From positions 10,563-74,562 of the forward strand of contig JAQWIK010000109.1 of NCBI GenBank assembly GCA_029248915.1: a stretch of DNA of 64,000 nucleotides, given 5' to 3'. Under the pieces are notes generated by a model. That model saw only the letters and a list, made by a program, of their open reading frames with translations. It searched no databases and was not told where the DNA came from. A program made the position numbers and the translations under genes. Origin of the DNA: Paracoccaceae bacterium. GTDB lineage: Bacteria; Pseudomonadota; Alphaproteobacteria; Rhodobacterales; Rhodobacteraceae. This document shows positions 47,589 to 61,772 of the stretch, one piece after another (the first letter of the stretch is position 1; each line of letters starts with the position of its first letter).

Positions 47589-48509
47589 ATGCAAATTTAT
47601 CTTCCAATAGCTGAAGTTTCAGTGAACGCTTTCCTTTTACTTGGCTTAGGTGGAGTGGTTGGTATTCTCTCCGGAATGTTTGGTGTTGGTGGTGGTTTCT
47701 TAATGACGCCGCTTCTGTTCTTTATTGGCATTCCCCCAGCTGTTGCAGTTGCAACAGAAGCAAATCAGATAGTTGCGTCCTCATTTTCAGGAGCATTGGC
47801 TCATTTAAAACGTAAAACTGTTGATTTAAAAATGGGTTTAATTCTTCTGATTGGTGGTCTTTTGGGGGCTGGAATTGGATTGATTATTTTTAATTATCTT
47901 AAAAGCCTTGGCCAAGTCGATTTACTTGTAAAACTTTGCTATGTTGCTTTCTTAGGTATTATTGGCAGTTTGATGTTTATAGAAAGCTTGCGGGCAATTT
48001 TAAAAACGCAGAGCGGTTTAATACCAAAAAAAGTTCGCAGACCAAGAAGTTTGGCACAACAATTACCCTTTAAAATGCGTTTCAGAACCTCAGGGCTATA
48101 CATTTCCGTAATACCACCAATATTGGTCGGTCTCTTAGTAGGGATCTTATCAGCAATAATGGGTGTTGGTGGTGGGTTTATTATGGTGCCAGCTATGATT
48201 TACATACTTGGCATGCCGACAAAAGTTGTAGTAGGAACATCACTTTTTCAAATTATTTTTGTTACAGGTTTTACAACCATATTGCATGCAACAACAAATT
48301 ACACAGTTGATATAGCTTTGGCTGTTCTTTTACTTTTGGGAGGTGTAATTGGTGCTCAATTCGGTAGCCAGTTTGGAACACGTTTACGGGCTGAACAGTT
48401 GCGAATTCTATTAGCATTAATGGTTATTGCTGTTTGCTTAAAAATTGCCCTCGACTTGTTGATTATGCCAACTGAACTGTACTCAATCAGCAATGCGAGT
48501 ATGCACTAA
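47589..48509 (+). CDS. TSUP (TauE/SafE) family anion exporter
   Basis: 306 aa. Two internal repeats, each with the GVGGGF(L/I)M(T/V)P motif. Confidence 0.8.
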   Translation: MQIYLPIAEVSVNAFLLLGLGGVVGILSGMFGVGGGFLMTPLLFFIGIPPAVAVATEANQIVASSFSGALAHLKRKTVDLKMGLILLIGGLLGAGIGLIIFNYLKSLGQVDLLVKLCYVAFLGIIGSLMFIESLRAILKTQSGLIPKKVRRPRSLAQQLPFKMRFRTSGLYISVIPPILVGLLVGILSAIMGVGGGFIMVPAMIYILGMPTKVVVGTSLFQIIFVTGFTTILHATTNYTVDIALAVLLLLGGVIGAQFGSQFGTRLRAEQLRILLALMVIAVCLKIALDLLIMPTELYSISNASMH

Positions 48510-49264
48510 TGTTGAGGCTATTTTTATTATTTTTGATATCAACTTCATCTGCCATAGCAGAAAGTGTTGTCATTGGAATGGACAAAGAAAAAGTTGCTAT
48601 TACTGCAACATTTGATGGATCCCAAATTTTATTGTTTGGTGCGGTTAAAAGAGATAAACCAGCTCCCATCGGTGATATTCAGGTTGTTGTTACTATAGCA
48701 GGACCATCCGAACCAATTTCAGTTCATAGAAAATCAAAAGTTTTAGGAATTTGGATGAACACTGATACTGTAGAAGTAGATGCTGCACCAAGCTTCTATG
48801 CTGTTGCTACAAGTTCAGGTTTTTCATCAACTATAAATGATACTGAAGACCTAAGATATAAAGTTTCTATACCTCGCGCAATTAGATCTGTTGGTGCACC
48901 AATGGATGTTTTAGATGCAGCTTCGTTTTCAGACGCAGTGATACGCATCAGAAGTGAAAAAGGGTTATATCAACTGCTTGAGAACAAGGTTAATATTGAC
49001 GAACAAACCTTATTTCGGACGTCTATAGACATGCCTGCAGATATATCTGACGGTGACTATACCGCGCGCATTCTCCTAACAAGGAATGGAAATGTAGTTG
49101 ATGAGTTTACTACAATAATTGACGTTAGAAAAGTTGGTTTAGAACGTTTCTTATTTAATATGTCTCGAGAAAACCCTCTGGCATATGGTTTAATGTCAAT
49201 TGCAATTGCTATATTTGCCGGATGGGCGGCCTCATTACTATTTAGATTTTTTAGGACTACCTAG
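48509..49264 (+). CDS. Alphaproteobacterial membrane-anchored protein, TIGR02186/Alph_Pro_TM-like
   Basis: 251 aa. Signal peptide plus a single C-terminal TM helix. TAATG overlap with the TSUP gene. The family assignment is from memory of this conserved gene pair. Confidence 0.5.
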   Translation: MLRLFLLFLISTSSAIAESVVIGMDKEKVAITATFDGSQILLFGAVKRDKPAPIGDIQVVVTIAGPSEPISVHRKSKVLGIWMNTDTVEVDAAPSFYAVATSSGFSSTINDTEDLRYKVSIPRAIRSVGAPMDVLDAASFSDAVIRIRSEKGLYQLLENKVNIDEQTLFRTSIDMPADISDGDYTARILLTRNGNVVDEFTTIIDVRKVGLERFLFNMSRENPLAYGLMSIAIAIFAGWAASLLFRFFRTT

Positions 49265-50028
49265 CGTGGCGCCATTCTAATGGCACCATCTAAACGTATT
49301 ACCTCTCCATTCAACATATCGTTCTCAATAATCTGCACTACTAACTTGGCAAATTCCGTTGGTTTTCCTAATCGTGATGGAAATGGAACCTGTTTTCCCA
49401 AGGATTCTTGAACTTCTTCAGGCAGGCTTTCCAAGAGTGGTGTCAAAAATAATCCTGGTGCTATCGAACAGACACGAATGCCTTTATCCGAAAGATCCCT
49501 TGCCATAGGAAGTGTCATTCCTACGATACCACCTTTAGAAGCTGAATAAGCAACCTGACCTATCTGCCCATCATAAGCCGCAACTGATGCTGTATTTACT
49601 ATAACACCCCGAAAACCATCCTCCGAATACGCCCTATTTTTGACCATTTCAGCCGCACATATAGAAGCTACGTTGAAGGAGCCAATCAGATTAATGTTAA
49701 TCACTTTTGCAAATAGTTCACTTGAATGAGGTTCACCTCGTGAAACAGTTTTTGCTGCTGGACCTATTCCAGCACAATTTACAACAATCTGAATTCCATC
49801 ATTTTTCTTCAAAAAAGATAAAACCGCTTGGTTTACTGAATTTGTATCTGTTACATCAACCTTGTAAAAATCCGAATTTATTTCCTCCGAAACTGCTAAA
49901 CCTTTATTTTCATCTAAATCAAAAATAGCTACATTTGCACCCATGGAAGAAAGCGAACGCGCTGTTGCTTCACCCAGCCCGGAGGCACCTCCAGTAACTA
50001 CAGCTGATATTTTTTCATTTATTTCCAT
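49261..50028 (-). CDS. SDR family 3-hydroxyacyl-CoA dehydrogenase (HSD17B10-like)
   Basis: 255 aa. TGGASGLG, NCAG and catalytic YSASKGG. The C-terminal RLDGAIRMAPR is typical of type-2 hydroxyacyl-CoA dehydrogenases. Confidence 0.8.
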   Translation of the reverse strand: MEINEKISAVVTGGASGLGEATARSLSSMGANVAIFDLDENKGLAVSEEINSDFYKVDVTDTNSVNQAVLSFLKKNDGIQIVVNCAGIGPAAKTVSRGEPHSSELFAKVININLIGSFNVASICAAEMVKNRAYSEDGFRGVIVNTASVAAYDGQIGQVAYSASKGGIVGMTLPMARDLSDKGIRVCSIAPGLFLTPLLESLPEEVQESLGKQVPFPSRLGKPTEFAKLVVQIIENDMLNGEVIRLDGAIRMAPR

Positions 50029-50131
50029 TGATCACCTCACCATATTTTCTATTTTACTATACAAATTATTTCTTTTGGCTAAATTTTAAATGCGTTAAAT
50101 AATTTTTAAATATTGGCGTCAGGATAAACAA

Positions 50132-50566
50132 ATGACACAAAACAAACAACTTTTCAGAGAAGAGTTCCCTACCTTTGTCGAGATGCCAACTAGATGGATA
50201 GATAATGACGCCTATGGTCATATGAATAATATTGTCCACTATGCACTAATAGACACAGCTGTTACTGACTGGCAAAGAAACCGCGGGTTCTTTAGTGACG
50301 AACATAAATGTTTAGAATTTATGGTAGTAGAAAGTGGTTGTCGCTATTTTTCGGAAGCTGCATACCCAGATAAAATAGCAGTTGGCTTAAGAATAAAAAA
50401 AATTGGTAATACATCATGGGTATATCAAGCAGGGCTTTTTCGAGAAGAAGATGAACTGTGTTTTGCCCTCGGTTTTTTTGCCCAGGTTCTCGTAGACTGT
50501 GAAAAACGAAGGCCCGCACCTATTCCCAAGAAAATGCATGACGCATTAAAGTTGATAGAAATTTAA
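50132..50566 (+). CDS. Hotdog-fold acyl-CoA thioesterase (4HBT/YbgC-like)
   Basis: 144 aa. RWIDNDAYGHMNN matches the family pattern with the catalytic Asp in D-x-x-G-H-V-x-N. Confidence 0.7.
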   Translation: MTQNKQLFREEFPTFVEMPTRWIDNDAYGHMNNIVHYALIDTAVTDWQRNRGFFSDEHKCLEFMVVESGCRYFSEAAYPDKIAVGLRIKKIGNTSWVYQAGLFREEDELCFALGFFAQVLVDCEKRRPAPIPKKMHDALKLIEI

Positions 50567-50610
50567 TTTGACGCCCATAAAATGCAAAGGATAGTTATTA
50601 TTAAATAAGT

Positions 50611-51696
50611 TCAGAAATTGACCACTTGTCCAGTTTCAGCAGAGGCCTGGGCTGCATGCCCCATCCTTACAGCCCAAATTCCGTCGTCCAGAGTGACCTC
50701 TGGAGGCATTTTCCCATCCACCACGAGCATAAATTTTTGATGTTGATAAAAGGTAGAACCATTATGATCTCCTGCCTCTAATATCTTCTTATCTACGGGC
50801 ACCTCCATCTCTTTTAAAATAGATTTATCTCTAGGACTAACCACTATTTTTGATATTGGAGGAGCACCAAGTTTTTTAGGCCAAAACCTAGCAGGTCCTG
50901 GGATAAAAGCCTCAACTTTGCCAGCCTCTCCAGTGATTGATATCTCTTCTTGATACTTTGAACCTTCTGCAAACATACAGAGTTCCAGCATTGCCTTCAT
51001 ATTATTTTCAAACTCAACAATGACATATCCGTGATCCCAAATATCTGGTACCGAACCAGAGTAATCTTCCTTCAGGTGGTTAACGGCCTGCCCTCCACTT
51101 GCCATTATCTTAATTGGGTTAGACTTTGTAATTAACCTCATCAAATCAAAAAAATGACAGCATTTTTCAACAAATGTCCCTCCACTATTTTTATTAAATC
51201 TGTTCCAATTATCAACTTTAGGAAGAAAGGGAAATCTATGTTCACGGATGGAAAGCATTTTGATACCACCAGTTACATTTTTTTGCTGCCTGATTAGTTC
51301 TGCTATGGGTGGCATATATCGATATTCCATAGCCACCCAAACCGGTGCTGTGTATTGAACTAAAAAGTTTTGTACTCTCTCCAAGTGATTGATGTCAGTA
51401 AACAAAGGTTTTTCCACTAAAATTGGCTTATGAGGTACACTAGCCAATCGTTCCAATTGTTCCATGTGAAGATGATTTGGCGAAACTATTAACCAGCAAT
51501 CAATGTTTTCATCACTTAAAATTTCATCCAGAGAATCATAAAACTTGGACTCTGGAGCAAGTGCTTTTGCCATCTTCTGCATATTTAAATTAGGTTCATA
51601 AACAGCATAAGTTAAAGCATCATCTATTAAATTTATATTGCGAAGATGCTCTTGCCCCATCATTCCACAACCAATAATTCCATACCTTTTTTTCAT
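50611..51696 (-). CDS. Gfo/Idh/MocA family NAD(P)-dependent oxidoreductase
   Basis: I chose ATG 51696 (MKKRYGIIGCGMMGQEH), preceded by AGGAG that overlaps the gntR stop. Rossmann GxGxxG, VEKP motif and the GGTFVEKCCHFFD block are present. Confidence 0.8.
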   Translation of the reverse strand: MKKRYGIIGCGMMGQEHLRNINLIDDALTYAVYEPNLNMQKMAKALAPESKFYDSLDEILSDENIDCWLIVSPNHLHMEQLERLASVPHKPILVEKPLFTDINHLERVQNFLVQYTAPVWVAMEYRYMPPIAELIRQQKNVTGGIKMLSIREHRFPFLPKVDNWNRFNKNSGGTFVEKCCHFFDLMRLITKSNPIKIMASGGQAVNHLKEDYSGSVPDIWDHGYVIVEFENNMKAMLELCMFAEGSKYQEEISITGEAGKVEAFIPGPARFWPKKLGAPPISKIVVSPRDKSILKEMEVPVDKKILEAGDHNGSTFYQHQKFMLVVDGKMPPEVTLDDGIWAVRMGHAAQASAETGQVVNF

Positions 51697-51703
51697 AATG
51701 CTC

Positions 51704-52405
51704 CTAACTGATACGCGTCGTATAGCGTGCAATATTTGTATCGATCCAACTTCGTGAAAACTCTACAGGAGCTCCAACCTGATCGTATGCTAAACGTTCT
51801 ATGCAAACTGTTTCCTGACAATTCATTACTTTAAATTCCTTAGGAGACCAAACAGGCACTGGAAGTAAGGTAGCGCTGTCTTTAGCTGAAGTAATACGCA
51901 AATTAAGAATATCTTTATAAAAGAGATAAATAGACTGTGAAATATTATTAAATTTAAGGCCATCAGTTTTAATCGAGTCTAAGTAAATTTCTTCCAACAC
52001 GCAGGGTAGATTATCTAAGAAACGCAATCGCCTAATCCTCAGGCATTCATCTGATTCTCCAAAAAATGGTGAGGATTTTGGTTTTTTAACTAAATTGATG
52101 TCTAAATTTTTAGCTGAAGGCAAACCTCCGCCATCGATAAGCTCAACTCTAAAAAACGAGTAAATGGAATTAAATTTTGTATTAAATTTTATGTAATTAC
52201 CAGAACCGTGCCTTCGAAATAAAGCACCTTTTTTTTCAAGGTCTTTTAATGATTTGCGCAGTGTTCCAACAGAAATGTTGAGAGATTTGGCCAATTGTCT
52301 TTCAGGCAGAAGACGTTCACCATCAGATAACCGACCTGCTATTATTTCTCTCATAAGCATTTCACTAATTTGGATATAAACTGGTAAAGAAGTAGCTTCC
52401 GACAT
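51704..52405 (-). CDS. GntR family transcriptional regulator, HutC subfamily (UTRA effector domain)
   Basis: I chose ATG 52405 (MSEATSLPVYIQISEMLMREI...). Winged helix LPERQLAKSLNISVGTLRKSLKDLEKKGALFRRHGSGNYI plus an about 150-aa UTRA-like C-terminal domain. Confidence 0.85.
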   Translation of the reverse strand: MSEATSLPVYIQISEMLMREIIAGRLSDGERLLPERQLAKSLNISVGTLRKSLKDLEKKGALFRRHGSGNYIKFNTKFNSIYSFFRVELIDGGGLPSAKNLDINLVKKPKSSPFFGESDECLRIRRLRFLDNLPCVLEEIYLDSIKTDGLKFNNISQSIYLFYKDILNLRITSAKDSATLLPVPVWSPKEFKVMNCQETVCIERLAYDQVGAPVEFSRSWIDTNIARYTTRIS

Positions 52406-52494
52406 GCTTCCAAAATGTAAGTAATTTAAAAATTGATACACTATTGATTTACATATGTTGTAATGTTACGCAAGACTTAACATTAGGGGGGGCT

Positions 52495-53649
52495 ATGACC
52501 GTCGTACCAATAACATCTTATGAATTGAAGGCTGCAGAGATTTCTTGGTTCTCAGCTTTATGCTCTGACGATTATCAATTCTTGGGAGTTCCAGATGGAA
52601 ACCTTCGAAGTTCATGGGACCATTGTAGTCAAATAGTGAAAGAAGCGGAAAACTATGGATTTCGAAATATCCTTTGCCCGTCTTCTTATCAAGTTGGACA
52701 AGACACATTGAGCTTTGTGGCTGGTTGCGCTCCAATAACGGAAAAAATTAATATGCTCGCTGCAGTAAGGTGCGGTGAAATGCAACCCATTATGCTCGCC
52801 CGAACTATCGCCACTTTAGATCACATGCTAAAAGGTCGACTTACTATTAATATCATTAGTTCCGATTTTCCTGGGGAAACCGCTGAGAGTGGATATCGAT
52901 ATAAACGTTCACGGGAAGTAGTTGAAATTTTAAAACAAGCATGGACACAAGATGAGATCAACTATGAAGGTGAGACATACAAATTTTCAGGTCTTACAAC
53001 TGATCCTTCAAAGCCTTTTCAAATTGGAGGACCGCTACTTTATTTCGGTGGCTATTCTCCACCAGCTCTTGAACTATGTGGACAACATTGTGATGTATAT
53101 CTCATGTGGCCTGAACCAAAAGAACAAATAATTAGCCGAATGAAATCTGTAAATGAAGTAGCTGAAAAATATAATAGAACCCTCGATTATGGTTTGAGAG
53201 TTCATATGATTGTTAGAGATTCCGAAATAGAGGCCAAAGAATATGCTGAGTACATAGTGTCAAAGCTAGAGGATGACTTTGGGAAGAAAATTAGAGAGCG
53301 GGCGCAGGACAGCTCTTCCTTGGGAGTATCGCACCAAACAAAAAATAGAAAAATGGCGGATGAATTCGGTTACGTCGAACCTAATCTTTGGACAGGAGTG
53401 GGTAGAGCAAGATCTGGATGTGGCGCTGCTATTGTTGGATCAACTGATCAAGTGATGAGTGAATTGGAACAATATCAGAAATTAGGAATTCGTTCTTTTA
53501 TCCTATCTGGGTACCCCCACCTTGAAGAATGTAAACATTTTGGCTCAAAGGTCTTGCCAAATATAAAAACTTGTTCTTTACCACATGAGTACGGACGAGT
53601 TCCCAACAATACACCTTCAACTCCACTTGGGATAGGGGAGCGTCACTAA
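52495..53649 (+). CDS. SsuD-family (alkanesulfonate-monooxygenase-like) FMNH2-dependent LLM monooxygenase
   Basis: I chose ATG 52495, preceded by a G-rich SD. Blocks LLYFGGYS, DVYLMWPEP, LRVHMIVRDSE, EPNLWTGVG, GAAIVGSTDQV and FILSGYPHLEE line up with E. coli SsuD as I recall it (PLYFGGSS, DLYLTWGEP, IRLHVIVRET, SPNLWAGVG, GTALVGDGPTV, FVLSGYPHLEE). Confidence 0.85.
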   Translation: MTVVPITSYELKAAEISWFSALCSDDYQFLGVPDGNLRSSWDHCSQIVKEAENYGFRNILCPSSYQVGQDTLSFVAGCAPITEKINMLAAVRCGEMQPIMLARTIATLDHMLKGRLTINIISSDFPGETAESGYRYKRSREVVEILKQAWTQDEINYEGETYKFSGLTTDPSKPFQIGGPLLYFGGYSPPALELCGQHCDVYLMWPEPKEQIISRMKSVNEVAEKYNRTLDYGLRVHMIVRDSEIEAKEYAEYIVSKLEDDFGKKIRERAQDSSSLGVSHQTKNRKMADEFGYVEPNLWTGVGRARSGCGAAIVGSTDQVMSELEQYQKLGIRSFILSGYPHLEECKHFGSKVLPNIKTCSLPHEYGRVPNNTPSTPLGIGERH

Positions 53650-54539
53650 TGGAAAGAATTAAAATAAGTTCAACGCTTACCATGTCCCAGTTGGTTTACG
53701 GTATGTGGCGATTAGGTGATGATGAAGATACATCGCCGGACCATGTACGAAATAAAATCGAAAGTTGTTTGGACCAAGGAATAACCTCCTTTGATCAGGC
53801 CGATATTTATGGCGGCTATGAGGCTGAAGAAATTCTAGGAAATGCACTTAAAGGTTCAAGCCTACGTCAAAAAATGGAAATTGTTACCAAGTGCGATATC
53901 GTCGCTCCAGTAGGTAGGTATAAAAATGCTCGCGTTAAGTATTATGATACGTCAAGAGACCATATTTTAAATTCAGTAGAGCAATCTTTAAAGCTAATGG
54001 GTATCGACTACATTGACTTGCTTTTACTTCATAGACCTGATCCATTGATGGATCACTTTGAAACCGGTGCTGCACTTGATGAAATAATTGCTTCTGGGAA
54101 AGTAAGAAATGTGGGCGTTTCAAATTTCAAACCGTGGGATTGGAATTTATTGCAAACTGGGATGAAAAATAAACTTGTCACCAATCAAATTGAGTTAAGC
54201 GTTCTTGCTCACGACGGCTTCACAAATGGAGACGTTGCATTTCACCAAAGTAAAAATACTCCAATTATGGCGTGGTCTCCCTTAGGGGGAGGAGACATAT
54301 TTTTAAAATCTAACGAAAAGATTTTGAATCATCTGGATAGTATAGGAAAAACATTTGGCTTCGAGCCAGGGACGGTCGCCGTTGCCTGGTTGCTCGCACA
54401 CCCTGCCAATATTTTACCTGTGCTAGGAACAAACTCATTGGCCCGAATAGAGACAATTTCAAAAGCCTTAGAGGTTAAATTGGATAGACAAACTTGGTTT
54501 GAAATTTATACAGCTGCGCTTGGACGTGAAGTTGCTTAG
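53649..54539 (+). CDS. Aldo-keto reductase, YdhF-like
   Basis: 296 aa. DQADIYGGYEAEE, DLLLLHRPDPLMD and VGVSNF blocks are very like E. coli YdhF from memory. TAATG overlap with the monooxygenase gene. Confidence 0.85.
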   Translation: MERIKISSTLTMSQLVYGMWRLGDDEDTSPDHVRNKIESCLDQGITSFDQADIYGGYEAEEILGNALKGSSLRQKMEIVTKCDIVAPVGRYKNARVKYYDTSRDHILNSVEQSLKLMGIDYIDLLLLHRPDPLMDHFETGAALDEIIASGKVRNVGVSNFKPWDWNLLQTGMKNKLVTNQIELSVLAHDGFTNGDVAFHQSKNTPIMAWSPLGGGDIFLKSNEKILNHLDSIGKTFGFEPGTVAVAWLLAHPANILPVLGTNSLARIETISKALEVKLDRQTWFEIYTAALGREVA

Positions 54540-54560: not shown

Positions 54561-55022
54561 ATGAAAAATCAGGATGAGTTCAGATTTGCTTTAGGGAAGT
54601 ACACAACAGGGGTCACAATTGTTACCTGTAACGGTAAAAATGGCCCGATAGGAATTACAGCAAATAGCTTTTCAAGCCTGTCTTTATCACCCCCATTAGT
54701 TCTATGGTCACCGGCAAAGGCTTCCAAAAGACATGATACTTTTTTAAAAGCTGAAAAGTTTACAATTCATATTGCTGGTGAACATCAAATTGAGCTATGC
54801 AAAAGCTTTTCAAAGAGCGCTGATGGTGGAAGTGAAATGAATTGGAATTTCAATGATGAAGGTGAAGCCTTTATCAAAAATTGTTCCGCACGGTTTGAAT
54901 GCACAAAATATAGTCACTTTGACGGAGGCGACCATTCAATTATCGTGGGAGAGGTGAAAAAGTTTGAAACTACGGACAATAAACCGTTAGTATATTGGGG
55001 AGGCAATTACCAAAAACTTTAA
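54561..55022 (+). CDS. Flavin reductase (HpaC/RutF-type, NAD(P)H:flavin oxidoreductase)
   Basis: 153 aa. FRFALGKYTTGVTIVT, ITANSFSSLSLSPPLVLWS and DHSIIVGEV blocks are typical of the short flavin reductases that partner two-component monooxygenases. Confidence 0.8.
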   Translation: MKNQDEFRFALGKYTTGVTIVTCNGKNGPIGITANSFSSLSLSPPLVLWSPAKASKRHDTFLKAEKFTIHIAGEHQIELCKSFSKSADGGSEMNWNFNDEGEAFIKNCSARFECTKYSHFDGGDHSIIVGEVKKFETTDNKPLVYWGGNYQKL

Positions 55023-55237: not shown

Positions 55238-56581
55238 ATGAAACGTAATATTAAATCTTTAAGTATCGCAGCTGCTCTGTCCTTAAGTTTTGGGACCATG
55301 GGGATCGCGGGTTCTCACGATGTTTGCAATACGCCATCAAAGTTAGGTGACATGGGAAGTTTTCCTGGCGAAGTCATAACTATGCAAGGATCAATGTTAG
55401 GCACTGACCAAGAAATGTTAGAAAATACCATTAGCTGCTTTGAAAAGGCAACTGGTGCAACAGTTCAATATTCTGGGTCATGTGATTTTGCAGCCCTCGT
55501 CGTTGCAGACATGCGTTCGAATAACCCACCTAACATCGCAATTTTTCCACAACCGGGTCTTGCAGCTGACATGGCCGCGGAAGGTCACCTTATTCCAATT
55601 GGTGATGATGCAGCCTCTTGGATGGCTGATAATTACGGAGCCGGCTCTTCATGGGTCGATCTTGGAACTTATGCCGATGCCAGCGGCAATAAGAATTTCT
55701 ATGGATTTGCATACAAAATGGATCTGAAATCTTTAGTTTGGTATTCACCTGAGCAATTTGAAGATAATGGCTATGAAATTCCTTCTACAATGGAAGAACT
55801 AATTGAGCTTTCTGATCAAATGGTTGCGGATGGCAACACTCCTTGGTGCATAGGTGTGGAGTCTGGAAATGCGACTGGATGGACCGCAACAGACTGGATG
55901 GAAGACATCATGCTACGCACAACTTCAGCGGAAAACTATGATCGGTGGGTTTCAAATGACCTTGCCTTCAATAGTCCTGAAGTAATCAACGCAATGAACC
56001 TTTATGGTCAATTTTCTAGGAATGACGAGTACGTCGCCGGTGGAGCATCATCAGTAGCTACCACGTCTTTCGGTGATGCGCCGAAAGGTTTGTTTACTTC
56101 ACCACCAAGGTGTATGATGCATCGTCAAGCCTCTTTTATCACAGGTTTTTTTCCTGATAAAGGAGAAGAAGTTGCACGCGGTGAGGCAGATGCTTTCTAC
56201 TTCCCTCCATTCGCATCGGGAAATTTAGGAAATCCAGTTCTTGGCGCAGGGACCCTGTACACAATGGCTAAAGACTCGCCTGCAACTCGTGCATTCTTTA
56301 AATATTTGCAAGAAGCCTCAGCTCATGAAGCTTGGATGCAGCAAGGTGTATTCCTAACTGCGCACAAAGGCGCTGACTTATCTGCTTATGCAACACCACT
56401 TCTTAGAAAGCAGGGAGAAATCCTAGCAAATGCAACAACTTTCCGTTTTGACGCTTCTGACTTAATGCCTGGTGCAATTGGAGCAGGTGCTTTTTGGAGC
56501 GAAATGACAGCATTTGCAAACGGACAGGATGCAAAAAGAACAGCTGACAATATTCAAGCAGCATGGGACGCTATTAAGTAA
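55238..56581 (+). CDS. aglE: Sugar ABC transporter substrate-binding protein (AglE-like, alpha-glucoside type)
   Basis: 447 aa. Signal peptide, family-1 extracellular solute-binding protein, GGAGG SD. First gene of an SBP-permease-permease-GH13-ATPase array, identical in order to Sinorhizobium aglEFGAK. The symbol is given by gene order only. Confidence 0.7.
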   Translation: MKRNIKSLSIAAALSLSFGTMGIAGSHDVCNTPSKLGDMGSFPGEVITMQGSMLGTDQEMLENTISCFEKATGATVQYSGSCDFAALVVADMRSNNPPNIAIFPQPGLAADMAAEGHLIPIGDDAASWMADNYGAGSSWVDLGTYADASGNKNFYGFAYKMDLKSLVWYSPEQFEDNGYEIPSTMEELIELSDQMVADGNTPWCIGVESGNATGWTATDWMEDIMLRTTSAENYDRWVSNDLAFNSPEVINAMNLYGQFSRNDEYVAGGASSVATTSFGDAPKGLFTSPPRCMMHRQASFITGFFPDKGEEVARGEADAFYFPPFASGNLGNPVLGAGTLYTMAKDSPATRAFFKYLQEASAHEAWMQQGVFLTAHKGADLSAYATPLLRKQGEILANATTFRFDASDLMPGAIGAGAFWSEMTAFANGQDAKRTADNIQAAWDAIK

Positions 56582-56603
56582 TAATAGCTACCAAACAAGC
56601 TTT

Positions 56604-56631
56604 AAGAGCACAGGGTAAAACCTGTGCTCTT
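56604..56631 (+). terminator. Intra-operon hairpin after the binding-protein gene (attenuator or mRNA-stabilising element)
   Basis: Perfect 11-bp stem AAGAGCACAGG / CCTGTGCTCTT with a 6-nt loop. It is followed by ATTTAATTA, which is a weak U-tract, so it is probably only a partial terminator. Confidence 0.45.
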
Positions 56632-56660
56632 ATTTAATTATCACTAGGTAAACCAAATAC

Positions 56661-57914
56661 ATGCGGTCAGTACAATCGATAATATTTAGCAATAGCTTAG
56701 CTATCGTATTAACGATTGTCTGCGTGCTACCAATTACTGCTGTTTTCATTTTTTCATTAACTGCGCCAATAGATGATGCTTTCGCCAATTTTGGTCTCTG
56801 GCTCCATGATAAATACAATTGGTCTGTAGCTATTTTTGTTACTGAACTTAGATTTGCAAAAGTAGGATTTGCACTACGATCTGTGATAATAGCTTTATTT
56901 ATTTCATTCCTTTATTATTGGATCGCAAATTGGCTCAACTTTGGATTAGCAAATTTCCGATCAAGCAATTCAATCGGGAAAAGGTCAGTAATTGCAGAAG
57001 CTATTCAGCCCTGGATATTTGTAGGGCCAGCATTGATCTTACTCTTACTATTTTTGCTAATTCCTGCACTCACTACATTGAAAATTTCTTTCACAGAACC
57101 TGGTGGAACAGCTTCAGTTAGCAACTATTCATTTCTGTGGGACCAAAATGCTTTAGGTTATATGCAATTTAGGTTGGCTATGAGAAATAGTTTAATGTGG
57201 TTAATTTTAGTACCATCGCTTTGTATAGTATTTGGATTACTTATTGCCGTTTTAGCCGACTCAGTAAGGTGGGGGGTCGTCGCAAAAACATTTATTTTCG
57301 TACCCTTGGCCATCTCGTTTGTTGGAGCAGCCGTGATCTGGCGAAATATCTTGGCAGGTGGAGGTATCGAACCACAAGAAGCAATAAACGGAGTTACACC
57401 TTCCTACCAAATAGGACTACTAAAGGCACTATTAGGACATACACCCGAGTATAATGAACCACTTTATAATCTCAAATTTTGGGGCAACTTTTACCTAATG
57501 TGGATTATGGTATGGATCAAAACCGGTTTTGCGATGGTTATTTTTTCTGCTGCGTTGAGAGGGGTACCGCAAGAGACGGTCGAGGCTGCTATAATTGATG
57601 GAGCTAACCCTCGGCAGCTATTCTTTAGAATAAAGTTACCACAAATTTTTTCAACTGTGGTGGTTGTATGGACATACCTTGTAACAGACGTTTTAAAGGT
57701 ATTCGATATTCCTTACGCATTATCCGCCAATGATGACGATAAGCTTTTGCTTGCTACTATGATGGAAGCTGCAATGAATACCTGGTCTATTGGTGGTAGT
57801 AATGTGGATAATTTATTCGCGGCTATCGCGATCATGCTCATGTTAACAGTTATTCCCCACATGATTTTCCTTGGTTGGCGTATACGCCGTGAACAAAAGC
57901 AATTAGAACATTAA
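56661..57914 (+). CDS. aglF: Sugar ABC transporter permease (MalF/AglF-like) with about 110-aa N-terminal membrane extension
   Basis: 417 aa. EAA-loop region (EAAIIDGANPRQLFFRIKLP). There is no in-frame ATG/GTG/TTG between 56661 and the canonical first helix, so the extension appears to be genuinely coded. Confidence 0.75.
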   Translation: MRSVQSIIFSNSLAIVLTIVCVLPITAVFIFSLTAPIDDAFANFGLWLHDKYNWSVAIFVTELRFAKVGFALRSVIIALFISFLYYWIANWLNFGLANFRSSNSIGKRSVIAEAIQPWIFVGPALILLLLFLLIPALTTLKISFTEPGGTASVSNYSFLWDQNALGYMQFRLAMRNSLMWLILVPSLCIVFGLLIAVLADSVRWGVVAKTFIFVPLAISFVGAAVIWRNILAGGGIEPQEAINGVTPSYQIGLLKALLGHTPEYNEPLYNLKFWGNFYLMWIMVWIKTGFAMVIFSAALRGVPQETVEAAIIDGANPRQLFFRIKLPQIFSTVVVVWTYLVTDVLKVFDIPYALSANDDDKLLLATMMEAAMNTWSIGGSNVDNLFAAIAIMLMLTVIPHMIFLGWRIRREQKQLEH

Positions 57915-57928
57915 GAGGTTGTTAAAAT

Positions 57929-59155
57929 ATGTTTAATCGTTCTTTTGCTCACATTATCCTGGCATTAATTTTGGTAATATGGGTGGTTCCCTTTATCGCT
58001 CTTATAACAACATCGTTCAGATCAGAAGTTGCATCTAAAACTTCAGGTTTTTGGACAGCATTCACGCCAACTGAACTTGGGCATCGCTTTAGTACACATG
58101 ACAAAGGGCAACAATTCAAAGTCATCGAAATGCGCGGTAATATTTTTGAACGGATAAATAAGAGCGAAGAATGGTTTACGATATCTGGGGGAATAAACTC
58201 AATTATGTTTAAGGGTAGAGTGCCTGACCCCGATAAACCAGGTAAAACCAAGTTAATTCGAAAACTAGTGCCCGCAGGCGAAGTCATGGATGTTCGCGGT
58301 GGGGAATTTATTTTCCAAGCTAACGGTGATTTTATTTGGTCTTTTCCAGAAGCAACAGCACCAAAGCCAAAAAACCTTGATGTTTTTATTAATCAAGATC
58401 CAGTATTTGGAGCGGAGGCCTATTTTGAGGTCTTGTTAGATAACAAAGACGTTCCAAACGCTCTGATATCTTCCTTTATCGTGGTGGTGCCCGCAACAAT
58501 AATTCCTATTACAGTTGCTGCGTTTGCTGCATATGCTTTTTCATGGATGCAGTTTCCAGGCCGAGACTGGTTATTTATACTTGTAGTTTCACTGATGGTG
58601 GTGCCAACCCAGTTAGCTTTTTTACCAATTTTACAGGGCTTCAACGGGCTTGCAAGCTGGGCTACTGCACTTAAACAATGGACGACGGATTGCGAATTGA
58701 CAAACACATGCCAATTCCCAACTAAGTCATTCGCAGGTTTGTGGCTTACTCATACAGGCTTTGGCCTTCCTCTCGCTATCTTTCTTTTGCGCAATTACAT
58801 CGTAGGATTGCCGCGGGAATTACTTGAGAGCGCCAAAATCGACGGTGCTAATCACATGCAAATTTTTGTGAAAGTAGTTATACCACTTTCTGTACCAGCA
58901 CTCGCTTCATTCAGTATTTTCCAGTTTCTCTGGATCTGGAATGATCTATTGGTAGCTATGTTTGTTGGACCTACTGCAAATGATGATGTAGTTTTTCCAA
59001 TTTTACTAGAAAGACAATTAGGAACTTTTGGAGACCAACTTCATCTTCTGAATGCTTCCGCAGTGATTTCCATGGTAGTACCAGTGATAGTATTTCTTGC
59101 TATGCAAAAATATTTTATTAAGGGATTGCTCGCCGGATCCGTCAAGGGAGGCTGA
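57929..59155 (+). CDS. aglG: Sugar ABC transporter permease (MalG/AglG-like) with large periplasmic loop
   Basis: 408 aa. EAA loop ESAKIDGANHMQIFVKVVIP. An about 150-aa hydrophilic segment sits between the first and second helices. Confidence 0.75.
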   Translation: MFNRSFAHIILALILVIWVVPFIALITTSFRSEVASKTSGFWTAFTPTELGHRFSTHDKGQQFKVIEMRGNIFERINKSEEWFTISGGINSIMFKGRVPDPDKPGKTKLIRKLVPAGEVMDVRGGEFIFQANGDFIWSFPEATAPKPKNLDVFINQDPVFGAEAYFEVLLDNKDVPNALISSFIVVVPATIIPITVAAFAAYAFSWMQFPGRDWLFILVVSLMVVPTQLAFLPILQGFNGLASWATALKQWTTDCELTNTCQFPTKSFAGLWLTHTGFGLPLAIFLLRNYIVGLPRELLESAKIDGANHMQIFVKVVIPLSVPALASFSIFQFLWIWNDLLVAMFVGPTANDDVVFPILLERQLGTFGDQLHLLNASAVISMVVPVIVFLAMQKYFIKGLLAGSVKGG

Positions 59156-59158
59156 AAA

Positions 59159-60727
59159 ATGTCTACTTTGAAATGGTGGGAAAACGCCGTAATCTACCAA
59201 ATTTATCCCAGGTCATTTCAGGACTCAAATAGCGATGGCATTGGTGATCTCAACGGCATCGCCTCAAGATTGAATTATATTGCAGATCTTGGTGTTGATG
59301 CTATCTGGGTTAGCCCCTTTTTCATGTCTCCTCAATATGACTTCGGCTATGACGTATCTAACTATTGCGATATTAACCCTGAGTATGGGACCCTTACTGA
59401 TTTTGATAATCTAATTCAGAAAACTCATAAGCTTGGTTTACGCCTTATGATAGATATTGTCCCCGCACATTGTTCTTCCTTGCACCCTTGGTTTGAAGAA
59501 AGCCGCCAGTCTAGACATAACTCAAAAGCTGACTGGTTTCATTGGGTAGATCCAAAACCAGACGGATTACCACCTAATAATTGGTTATCGTTTTTTGGAG
59601 GCTTAGCTTGGTCTTGGGAACCACGGCGTCAACAATACTATTTACATAATTTTTTACCAGAGCAGCCAAATTTAAATCATGCGAACCCTCAGGTGCGTGA
59701 CGAGTTAAATAAAATAGCAAGATTTTGGTTTGACCGTGGCGTGGATGGTTTCAGATTAGACGCAGTCCACACAATCAACGGAGATACTGCACCTTACAGA
59801 GATAATTTAGCAGATCCAAATTTTGTTCTCGGGCCCTTACCCCAAGACAAACAACCTTCTTTTAGACAATTGCATGACGTGGCTCAACTTAATCAGCCAG
59901 TGATCCAGAGCTTTAGTTCAGCTTATAGAAAAATAGCTGACGAGTATGAAGGTGATCGCTTTCTTATGGGAGAGGTGGATGGAGACGAAGGTAATGCTAT
60001 GAACGTCAGTAAGACGTTTTCAGAACCTGGTCGGCTCCACGCAACTTATAATTTTGATCTGCTTGAATGGTCAGGATTGACAGTCTCTGAACTTAAAGAA
60101 GCTATTTCAAATGCAATAAAGGTTTTCAACGGATCAGGTCGACTATGCTTTGCCTTTTCTAACCACGACGTTCCAAGATCAGCAACTCGCCAACTGGAGC
60201 CACTTGAAATTTCACTGGATAAACAAGATAATTTGCAGCTGTTACTTCTTCAGCTGGAAACATCACTTATTGGCTCAACCTGTATCTATCAGGGTGAAGA
60301 ATTAGGTCTTTGTGACGTTACTGATATTCCTGTAACAAAAATGAAAGACCCCTGGGGTATAAACTTTCATCCTGAATTCTTAGGAAGAGATACATGCAGA
60401 ACACCTATGGTCTGGAATAAGAAACAGTCTATGGGTGGATTTACATCAGGAAATCAGTCCTGGTTACCAATAGCTGAACCTCATTTAGAAAAGGCCGCAC
60501 TGGAAATGGCAATAAATACTAAATCTGTATACAGTAAGTTTTCAAAATTCTTAAAATGGCGGAAAAAGCAGCCAGCGATGATGCATGCTAATATCATGTC
60601 AGAAGTGTCTGGTGGCCCTAAAGAAATAATTTTTGATAGAATGAGTGACTCTCAAAAATTGAGATGTAAATTTGATTTTGAAATGGTTAAAGCCACCTTT
60701 GAAGAGGTAAAGTATGGCACAAGTTGA
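59159..60727 (+). CDS. aglA: GH13 alpha-glucosidase (AglA / oligo-1,6-glucosidase-like)
   Basis: 522 aa. WWENAVIYQIYPRSFQDSNSDGIGDL start. Conserved regions DIVPAH (I), GFRLDAVH (II, nucleophile Asp), GEVDG (III, acid/base Glu) and FSNHDVPR (IV) are all present. Confidence 0.88.
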   Translation: MSTLKWWENAVIYQIYPRSFQDSNSDGIGDLNGIASRLNYIADLGVDAIWVSPFFMSPQYDFGYDVSNYCDINPEYGTLTDFDNLIQKTHKLGLRLMIDIVPAHCSSLHPWFEESRQSRHNSKADWFHWVDPKPDGLPPNNWLSFFGGLAWSWEPRRQQYYLHNFLPEQPNLNHANPQVRDELNKIARFWFDRGVDGFRLDAVHTINGDTAPYRDNLADPNFVLGPLPQDKQPSFRQLHDVAQLNQPVIQSFSSAYRKIADEYEGDRFLMGEVDGDEGNAMNVSKTFSEPGRLHATYNFDLLEWSGLTVSELKEAISNAIKVFNGSGRLCFAFSNHDVPRSATRQLEPLEISLDKQDNLQLLLLQLETSLIGSTCIYQGEELGLCDVTDIPVTKMKDPWGINFHPEFLGRDTCRTPMVWNKKQSMGGFTSGNQSWLPIAEPHLEKAALEMAINTKSVYSKFSKFLKWRKKQPAMMHANIMSEVSGGPKEIIFDRMSDSQKLRCKFDFEMVKATFEEVKYGTS

Positions 60728-61772
60728 ACTTAAAAATGTTGCGAAGTCTTTTGGAAAAACAGAAGTTATAAGAGACGTACACTTATCAATAGAAAAGGGG
60801 GAATTCGTTGTCTTCGTTGGCCCATCTGGTTGTGGGAAATCAACGCTACTGAGGCTAATTGCTGGTTTGGAAAACCTAACAGAAGGTGAAATTATAATAG
60901 CAGACAAACCAGTTATGGATTTACCTCCATCTGAACGCGGAATTGCTATGGTTTTTCAGTCATACGCTCTTTATCCACATATGTCTGTTTTTCAAAATAT
61001 GGCTTTTTCTTTAAGTCTCCAAAGCTTATCAAAAGATGATATCAAGAAACGAGTAGAGGCGGCAGCTAAAATTCTTCAAATGGAGCATCTTCTGGACCGT
61101 AGGCCAGCTGCGTTGTCTGGTGGACAGCGGCAACGTGTTGCTATTGGACGAGCGATCGTTAGAAATCCTGATGTATTTTTATTTGATGAACCGCTCTCAA
61201 ATTTAGATGCTGCACTACGACATGATACGCGCGTTGAGATCGCCAAATTACATAAGCAATTAGATGCTACAACTATATACGTAACCCATGATCAGGTTGA
61301 AGCCATGACCTTAGCTGACAAAATAGTTGTCCTAAAAGATGGAGAAATTATGCAAGTGGGATCGCCAATGGAATTATTCAATACGCCTGCAAATGAGTTT
61401 GTTGCTGGATTTCTTGGTTCACCAAAAATGAACTTTTTTGATGGGAATTTATCAAAAGTTACTAAAAGTGGCTCAACAGGGTCTTTTGCTGGAGAAGGTT
61501 TTACGGCAAATAGTATTCGGCTTAATTCACCAGAAAAGCGAGCTGAAGAAAAAATACTGTTGGGTATTCGCCCACAGCACTTACAAATCGATGTAAAAGG
61601 TAACTTGTCAGGTAAAGTGACATTAGTCGAAAAACTTGGAACGGAAACTGTTGTTGAATTGATTACTGAAAATGGAACCCCCTTCAGATATGCGGCGGCA
61701 GAAACTCCCAATATAACAACTGGAGACAAGCTAAAATTTAAATTCGAAAGTGATAAAGCTCACTTATTTTAA
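60714..61772 (+). CDS. aglK: Sugar ABC transporter ATP-binding protein (MalK/UgpC/AglK type)
   Basis: 352 aa. Walker A GPSGCGKST, signature LSGGQRQR, Walker B FLFDEPLS and a C-terminal TOBE-like domain. Overlaps the GH13 gene by 14 nt. Confidence 0.9.
   Translation: MAQVELKNVAKSFGKTEVIRDVHLSIEKGEFVVFVGPSGCGKSTLLRLIAGLENLTEGEIIIADKPVMDLPPSERGIAMVFQSYALYPHMSVFQNMAFSLSLQSLSKDDIKKRVEAAAKILQMEHLLDRRPAALSGGQRQRVAIGRAIVRNPDVFLFDEPLSNLDAALRHDTRVEIAKLHKQLDATTIYVTHDQVEAMTLADKIVVLKDGEIMQVGSPMELFNTPANEFVAGFLGSPKMNFFDGNLSKVTKSGSTGSFAGEGFTANSIRLNSPEKRAEEKILLGIRPQHLQIDVKGNLSGKVTLVEKLGTETVVELITENGTPFRYAAAETPNITTGDKLKFKFESDKAHLF

Follow-up and report, generated by a model that had tools for sequence, protein, structure and literature searches.

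We analysed a 64,000-nucleotide stretch of DNA from a Paracoccaceae bacterium (GenBank assembly GCA_029248915.1, contig JAQWIK010000109.1), hereafter the window, and focused on the gene at 50611-51696 on its minus strand. Judged by its sequence and its predicted structure, this gene is an orthologue of the characterised NAD+-dependent sulfoquinovosidases of glycoside hydrolase family GH188, and we refer to it as sqgA. Its product, SqgA, very probably acts as a cytoplasmic, metal-independent, NAD+-dependent GH188 sulfoquinovosidase, and we are highly confident in placing it at the gateway of a sulfoquinovose monooxygenase (sulfo-SMO) locus in one small-genome, low-GC pelagic Rhodobacteraceae bacterium. 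The original prediction for this gene had left the choice between an NAD+-dependent sulfoquinovosidase working by C3 oxidation, possibly the real entry glycosidase of the locus, and a 3-keto-sugar-forming dehydrogenase. The PDB matches, the fold, the active-site residues, the sulfo-SMO context and the failure to find GH31 all agree with the sulfoquinovosidase option, and the GH188 orthology, the sulfo-SMO neighbours and the lack of a GH31 match in the genome likewise favour its role as a putative entry glycosidase. The literature on sulfoquinovosidases summarised in that prediction was accurate when compared with Kaur et al. 2023 (PMC10755693).

The frame on the minus strand stays open over 361 codons (protein P0001), and translation and Pfam agree with the 361-residue Rossmann-fold protein that had been described, with the motifs GCGMMG at residue 9, EKP at residue 95 and EKCCHFFD at residue 177. 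Pfam assigned the GFO_IDH_MocA N-terminal Rossmann domain with an E-value of 1.2e-18 and the C-terminal domain with an E-value of 1.2e-23. We then searched SqgA against all PDB chains with phmmer (E<=0.001), resulting in 35 matches. SqgA matched 8ZN9 (RdSqgA) at E 2.1e-150 over residues 4-360, 8QC2 and 8QC8 (FlSqgA) at E 2e-101 over residues 4-359, and 8QC3, 8QC5 and 8QC6 (ArSqgA) at E 2.7e-99, also over residues 4-359, while the best match outside SqgA was a generic Thermotoga dehydrogenase at E 2.3e-18. The comparison with GH188, GH109, GH4 and dehydrogenases that the original prediction had proposed thus gave E-values from 2e-150 to 2.7e-99 for GH188, against 2.3e-18 for the best dehydrogenase. 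FlSqgA and ArSqgA are the proteins on which CAZy GH188 was founded (Kaur et al. 2023, PMC10755693). According to the available part of Ma et al. 2025 (PMC12780224), 8ZN9 is the sole deposition of that study and represents RdSqgA from Roseobacter denitrificans OCh 114, an NAD+-dependent sulfoquinovosidase acting on sulfoquinovosyl glycerol (SQGro).

An AlphaFold model of SqgA, for which the input alignment contained 120 homologues, reached a mean predicted local distance difference test score (pLDDT) of 94.4 and a predicted template modelling score (pTM) of 0.92. In Foldseek alignments the model fitted 8ZN9 with a template modelling score (TM) of 0.98, a root-mean-square deviation of 1.0 A and 59-60% identity, and the 8QC entries with a TM of 0.96-0.97 and 45-46% identity. 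Among chains other than SqgA, the best one reached a TM of 0.74 with 23% identity. The similarity to the GH188 founders extends over the full length of the protein, including the C-terminal domain, on which the HMM of the family is based, and the predicted model contains both domains of the family, namely the N-terminal Rossmann domain and the C-terminal alpha/beta dimerisation domain. The GxGxxG motif occupies residues 9-14, and E34, which is at least 90% conserved in the homologue alignment, ends strand beta-2 of the model. An acidic residue that ends strand beta-2 of a Rossmann fold, as E34 does, is taken to favour NAD over NADP. Two identity thresholds have been used for this group: 54% to RdSqgA for prokaryotic SqgA, as given in the available part of Ma et al. 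2025 (PMC12780224), and ~53% for the sequence-network clusters of GH188 (Kaur et al. 2023, PMC10755693). The 59-60% identity of SqgA to the 8ZN9 chains passes both of them.

The catalytic and sulfonate-binding residues described for these enzymes have counterparts in SqgA. In ArSqgA, Lys107 and His193 are found at O3, Tyr136 at O2, His321 at O1 and Glu189 at O4, and the sulfonate is contacted by Arg166, Lys172 and the backbone amide of Leu170 (Kaur et al. 2023, PMC10755693). For RdSqgA, the available part of Ma et al. 2025 (PMC12780224) lists K98, H183, Y127, R156, L160, K162 and E179 as functional and conserved. In SqgA, the residues K96, Y125, R154, L158, K160, E177 and H181 follow one another with a spacing identical to that of the RdSqgA list. 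Together with H311, they align with identical residues in 8ZN9 and 8QC2, and none of the eight varies in the alignment of homologues (120 of 120). With the ArSqgA numbering assigned by motif spacing, K96, H181, Y125, H311 and E177 form the catalytic set, and R154, K160 and L158, which lie within the block 151-160, form the sulfonate triad. E152 is likewise invariant among the 120 homologues, and may be the counterpart of ArSqgA Glu163, with a spacing that is off by one.

The genes next to sqgA are those of a sulfo-SMO pathway. Divergent from gntR-sqgA, on the plus strand, lies smoC (52495..53649, Pfam Bac_luciferase), the orthologue of the sulfoquinovose monooxygenase that depends on reduced flavin mononucleotide (FMNH2). 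It is followed by smoB (53649..54539, Pfam Aldo_ket_red), the orthologue of the aldo-keto reductase that acts on 6-oxo-glucose, and by a smoA-like flavin reductase gene (54561..55022, Pfam Flavin_Reduct, E 5e-36). Among PDB chains, SmoC of the window matched 7OLF (E 4e-207) as well as 7OH2 (E 3e-202), with the alignment starting at query residue 18, which corresponds to base 52495, and SmoB matched 7BBY, 7BBZ, 7BC0 and 7BC1 at E ~5e-120. The available part of Sharma et al. 2022 (PMC8795539) identifies the first two entries as SmoC structures and the other four as SmoB structures. With the SmoC, SmoB and flavin reductase genes adjoining sqgA and no GH31 found, the locus has the context known for GH188 genes, which occur in sulfo-SMO clusters that lack GH31 and are near-universal in those of the marine Roseobacter clade (Kaur et al. 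2023, PMC10755693).

The host genome comprises 2.02 Mb in 113 contigs with a GC content of 39.6%. A search of it for GH31 (PF01055) returned 0 matches, in an assembly that is 90.16% complete, so that absence is not proven; as a control, the GH31 search gave matches in 6 of 14 control genomes. In the same host genome sqgA is the sole GH188-like gene, and the next Gfo/Idh/MocA paralogue is 25% identical.

Based on these orthologues, the reaction of SqgA can be outlined as follows. A sulfoquinovoside, for instance SQGro, would lose a hydride at C3 to tightly bound NAD+, with K96 and H181 positioned at the sugar O3. The resulting 3-ketone would acidify H2, which Y125 would abstract, and the aglycone would then be eliminated with the assistance of H311 at O1. 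Water would add to the enone, and the enzyme-bound NADH would re-reduce C3, giving net hydrolysis with no net NADH and a regenerated cofactor. Throughout, R154, K160 and the backbone amide of L158 would grip the 6-sulfonate and set the specificity. The freed sulfoquinovose would pass to SmoC, which would cleave the C-S bond and release sulfite using FMNH2 from the flavin reductase, and SmoB would convert 6-oxo-glucose to glucose. The oxidise-eliminate-hydrate-reduce mechanism with NAD+ as a catalytic cofactor is described for SqgA by Kaur et al. 2023 (PMC10755693), and FlSqgA, ArSqgA, CrSqgA and RdSqgA cut SQGro or para-nitrophenyl sulfoquinovoside (PNP-SQ) in the presence of NAD+, with deuterium entering at C2 (PMC10755693 and the available part of PMC12780224). 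We infer from the model that SqgA is a cytoplasmic protein, since it begins directly with the Rossmann strand beta-1 and uses NAD+.

The start of sqgA was placed by its sequence context. The longest mechanical open reading frame begins at TTG 51732 and encodes 373 residues. We dropped this start and preferred ATG 51696, because a Shine-Dalgarno sequence precedes this ATG, because the homologues align from residue 1-5, and because Rossmann strand beta-1 of the model begins at residue 3. On the minus strand the junction with the upstream regulator gene reads TAG GAG CATT ATG, with an intergenic gap of 7 nt. The Shine-Dalgarno sequence AGGAG (51701..51705, minus strand) lies 4 nt 5' of the ATG, and the final two bases of the gntR stop codon TAG (51704-51706) fall within it. 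The overlap of the ribosome-binding site with the regulator stop, pointed out in the original prediction, can thus be read directly from the sequence, and the TAGGAG...ATG layout is found again in the close relatives L001-L003. A metatranscriptome contig from seawater run X8 (depth 4.65) carries an additional T behind 51686, within the first sqgA codons; this insertion probably stems from misassembly or from strain variation.

The upstream gene, gntR (51704..52441, minus strand), encodes a SmoD-like, HutC-type regulator, in which Pfam found a GntR helix-turn-helix domain (E 2.5e-13) and a UTRA domain (E 2.9e-13), as the HutC-type assignment made beforehand requires. Its true start is likely ATG 52405 (233 residues) and not GTG 52441 (245 residues); the homologue in Roseobacter insulae (L060) has 235 residues, with the helix-turn-helix at residues 14-76. 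We consider that sqgA most probably shares an mRNA with this GntR/HutC-type repressor gene. In 80 loci of relatives, the distance from the gntR stop to the sqgA start, measured with start codons picked by a simple rule, was an overlap in 1 case, 0-20 nt in 65, 21-60 nt in 13 and 164 nt in 1 (L042). It was therefore at most 20 nt or an overlap in 66 of the 80, with a median of 10.5 nt. Thirteen RNA-labelled seawater runs contain part of the window, and four of these, from four studies (X1, X5, X7 and X8), were examined in detail. In all four, metatranscriptome contigs covered sqgA at >=95% identity, and in each run a single contig bridged the gntR-sqgA junction (X1, 51614-52165; X5, 50821-51850; X7, 50963-51757; X8, 51655-51846). 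The conserved tight spacing speaks for the co-transcription that had been claimed, without amounting to proof of one transcript.

The 80 loci are the best of a scan of species-representative genomes, which matched 599 stretches, 590 of them encoding relatives. Neighbouring genes were counted by tblastn (E<=1e-20, query coverage >=60%). A GntR gene stands directly upstream on the sqgA strand in 80 of 80 loci, and SmoC was found in 77, the aldo-keto reductase (SmoB) in 71 and the flavin reductase in 66, whereas the Agl-type binding protein described below was found in 6 and GH13 in 5. Several of the missing genes belong to loci ended by a contig edge, such as L019 with 4215 bases. The closest relatives are Rhodobacteraceae single-cell genomes and metagenome-assembled genomes at 86-90% identity, after which identity drops to at most 67%. 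In a set of 30 relatives, sqgA is present in 14 of 18 congeners; it also occurs in 3 of 6 genomes of the next family at 46-47% identity, and in 0 of 6 more distant members of the class.

Within this one GTDB genus the sqgA genes fall into two identity classes, with eight genomes at 84-90% (G001, G002, G004, G006, G008, G010, G012 and G018) and six at 59-62% (G003, G007, G009, G013, G014 and G015). In the divergent loci L086 and L087 the neighbours diverge too (SmoC 73-77%, aldo-keto reductase 60-63%), and the GC content is likewise ~40%. The two classes may have arisen by an early split within the genus or by exchange of the cluster.

Beyond smoCBA, the plus strand carries an Agl-type ATP-binding cassette (ABC) importer operon at 55238..61772. 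According to Pfam it consists of a binding protein (55238-56581, SBP_bac_1), two permeases (56661-57914 and 57929-59155, BPD_transp_1 in both), a GH13 alpha-glucosidase (59159-60727, Alpha-amylase) and an ATPase (60714-61772, ABC_tran). The glycoside is presumed to enter the cytoplasm, where SqgA would act on it, through this importer, whose substrate assignment is putative. When the binding protein was searched against the PDB at E<=0.001, it gave no match to SmoF (7NBZ, 7OFY) and 6 weak matches, the best at E 3.4e-06. The Agl-type importer stands beside sqgA in only 5-6 of the 80 loci (L001, L002, part of L003, L011, HIMB11 as L066, and L080), and in Roseobacter insulae, which represents the genus Roseobacter among the 80, a tripartite ATP-independent periplasmic (TRAP) system adjoins the sqgA module in its place. 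It is conceivable, although we consider it unlikely, that this one importer brings in both SQGro and neutral alpha-glucosides such as glucosylglycerol, with SqgA and the GH13 enzyme as parallel gateways under HutC-type regulation. If true, the locus would be a combined module for scavenging compatible solutes and sulfolipid headgroups, with a single HutC-type regulator and one glucose pool.

Several points weigh against the proposed role of SqgA and its locus. The activity, the cofactor retention and the substrate range are all derived from orthologues with 45-60% identity. The importer has a binding protein that is no SmoF orthologue, and its operon holds an ordinary alpha-glucosidase; homology therefore gives no support for entry as SQGro rather than as free sulfoquinovose. 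Four of the 18 congeners gave no sqgA match; three of these are 53-81% complete and one is 94% complete. As for the shared transcript, assembled RNA contigs do not demonstrate transcription and are blind to strand, to transcript ends and to whether there is a single transcript; DNA may also be present in RNA libraries. Within 50300-52800, moreover, a promoter scan returned 8 sites versus a shuffled mean of 8.0, and a terminator scan returned 2 sites versus a shuffled mean of 2.0.

One alternative leaves the chemistry unchanged and assigns SqgA a different entry point into the pathway. The enzyme would have the GH188 fold and a physiological substrate other than alpha-SQGro, for example beta-linked sulfoquinovose conjugates, intact or lyso-sulfolipid, or another 6-sulfo-sugar glycoside or aglycone. 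FlSqgA does cleave both alpha- and beta-PNP-SQ, and its authors mention beta-linked sulfoquinovose glycans as possible substrates (Kaur et al. 2023, PMC10755693); the importer adjoining sqgA is also unlike both the SmoF ABC system and the Roseobacter insulae TRAP system. However, at the positions that contact the sugar and the sulfonate, SqgA carries the same residues as enzymes with demonstrated activity on SQGro, and the downstream enzymes are close orthologues of the sulfoquinovose-specific SmoC and SmoB. We therefore regard such a substrate as very unlikely.

It is more improbable still that SqgA is a plain dehydrogenase of the Gfo/Idh/MocA family, acting on a sugar or inositol or as a glycoside 3-dehydrogenase, which releases NAD(P)H stoichiometrically and lies beside the sulfo-SMO genes by chance. 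The Pfam domains of SqgA are indeed those of the general oxidoreductase family, its best NCBIfam match is the inositol 2-dehydrogenase IolG, and weak PDB matches, at E 1e-9 to 1e-18, include inositol dehydrogenases as well as glycoside 3-dehydrogenases of the DgpA type. Nevertheless, the IolG model (TIGR04380) scored 108.3 bits against a cut-off of 355, the UDP-GlcNAc 3-dehydrogenase 38.6 against 450, the BT_2159 disaccharide 3-dehydrogenase 30.1 against 650 and the levoglucosan dehydrogenase 25.8 against 650. The plain dehydrogenase was dropped with all of these equivalogs so far under their cut-offs, and the 3-keto-sugar-forming option gained no support. In addition, the SqgA structures outscore every dehydrogenase by 80-130 orders of magnitude in PDB phmmer E-value, the homologues show no variation in the sulfonate Arg/Lys pair or in the catalytic His/Tyr set, and gntR and smoC are paired with sqgA in 77-80 of the 80 loci. 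GH4 membership was rejected, since none of the 3 Pfam hits is a GH4 family and none of the 35 PDB matches a GH4 chain, and so was GH109 membership, with no chain named GH109 among the same 35 matches and the presence of 6T2B in the searched PDB copy unconfirmed.

The remaining features of the region concern its intergenic space and outer flank. The divergent intergenic region spans ~89 nt (52406-52494), from the probable gntR ATG at 52405 to the smoC ATG at 52495, which is preceded by a G-rich Shine-Dalgarno sequence. Read by eye, this region holds a short inverted repeat, GTAA-N2-TTAC, as a candidate HutC-type operator. Directly 3' of sqgA (49261-50566) lie a gene of the SDR family on the minus strand and a 4HBT thioesterase gene on the plus strand, convergent with sqgA. 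The SDR gene occurs in 4 of the 80 loci and both genes together in 3, and both are also found in L088; because they are present in only 3-4 of 80 loci, these two genes are probably outside the sulfoquinovose module. About 2 kb past sqgA (47589-49264) are genes for a TauE/SafE-family exporter and an Alph_Pro_TM membrane protein, and the TauE gene is found at the same place in two relatives, L003 and L088 (91% identity). The TauE/SafE-family protein might plausibly provide the exit for the sulfite released in the SmoC reaction.

The public names of SqgA orthologues do not convey this function. The orthologues (P0020, P0039, P0064, P0093 and others) are called 'predicted dehydrogenase', and further names in use are 'myo-inositol 2-dehydrogenase/D-chiro-inositol 1-dehydrogenase', 'inositol 2-dehydrogenase' and 'Gfo/Idh/MocA family protein'. 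NCBIfam release 20 contains no SqgA model. Given this gap and the dehydrogenase labels in public sources, the SqgA family is systematically under-annotated, and the value of the present result lies in the correct annotation of proteins labelled dehydrogenase; it raises no new question. Sulfoquinovose is among the most abundant organosulfur compounds, and SqgA gives marine Roseobacter-group bacteria access to its glycosides in addition to the free sugar, which is rare (Kaur et al. 2023, PMC10755693, and the available part of Ma et al. 2025, PMC12780224).

Among known systems, RdSqgA (8ZN9) is closest to SqgA, with which it shares the family, the fold, the length class and all seven functional residues with their spacing. 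Its gene, like sqgA of the window, adjoins a sulfo-SMO cluster in a Roseobacter-group bacterium, as stated in the available part of PMC12780224. The two proteins differ in 40% of their residues, and the host of the window differs in being uncultured, with a GC content of 39.6% and a ~2 Mb genome, and in carrying an Agl-type ABC importer with GH13. The Arthrobacter sp. U41 enzyme ArSqgA and the Flavobacterium sp. K172 enzyme FlSqgA resemble SqgA in the Rossmann plus alpha/beta dimerisation fold, and their Lys/Tyr/His/His catalytic set and Arg/Lys/backbone sulfonate triad have counterparts in it. Their genes, by contrast, are located in clusters for sulfoglycolysis of the Embden-Meyerhof-Parnas type (sulfo-EMP), whereas sqgA of the window is located in a sulfolytic sulfo-SMO cluster (PMC10755693). 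The GH109 enzyme AmGH109A (6T2B) and the GH4 enzyme BglT (1UP6) follow the same oxidise-eliminate-hydrate-reduce logic at C3. GH109 also has a Gfo/Idh/MocA-like fold and two structurally conserved histidines in common with SqgA, and the sequences of ArSqgA and AmGH109A are 15% identical (Kaur et al. 2023, PMC10755693). GH4 requires Mn2+, bound by a Cys/His site that is missing from the SqgA enzymes (PMC10755693).

The cluster of Marinovum sp., as presented in the abstract of Li et al. (bioRxiv 10.1101/2023.03.31.535182), is likewise a Roseobacter-group sulfo-SMO cluster that lacks GH31 and has a GH13 gene. The encoded MsGH13 is reported there to have no sulfoquinovosidase activity, so that no candidate for the entry glycosidase other than SqgA is left in clusters of this type. 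We regard MsGH13 as a probable relative of the GH13 enzyme of the window; the abstract makes no mention of sqgA. The enzyme and its gene neighbourhood are already known, because Kaur et al. and Ma et al. describe both; the available part of the latter (PMC12780224) reports an assayed Roseobacter SqgA orthologue and sqgA and smoC transcripts mapped across the oceans, and a 2026 review (PMC13436972), in the part available, gives the same picture of GH188 and sulfo-SMO. The host lineage is a minor variation on this theme, as is the Agl-type importer, and the importer type is already in print for Marinovum, according to the abstract of that study. What the window adds is that an uncultured, pelagic, low-GC Rhodobacteraceae lineage with a ~2 Mb genome retains the complete gntR-sqgA / smoCBA module.

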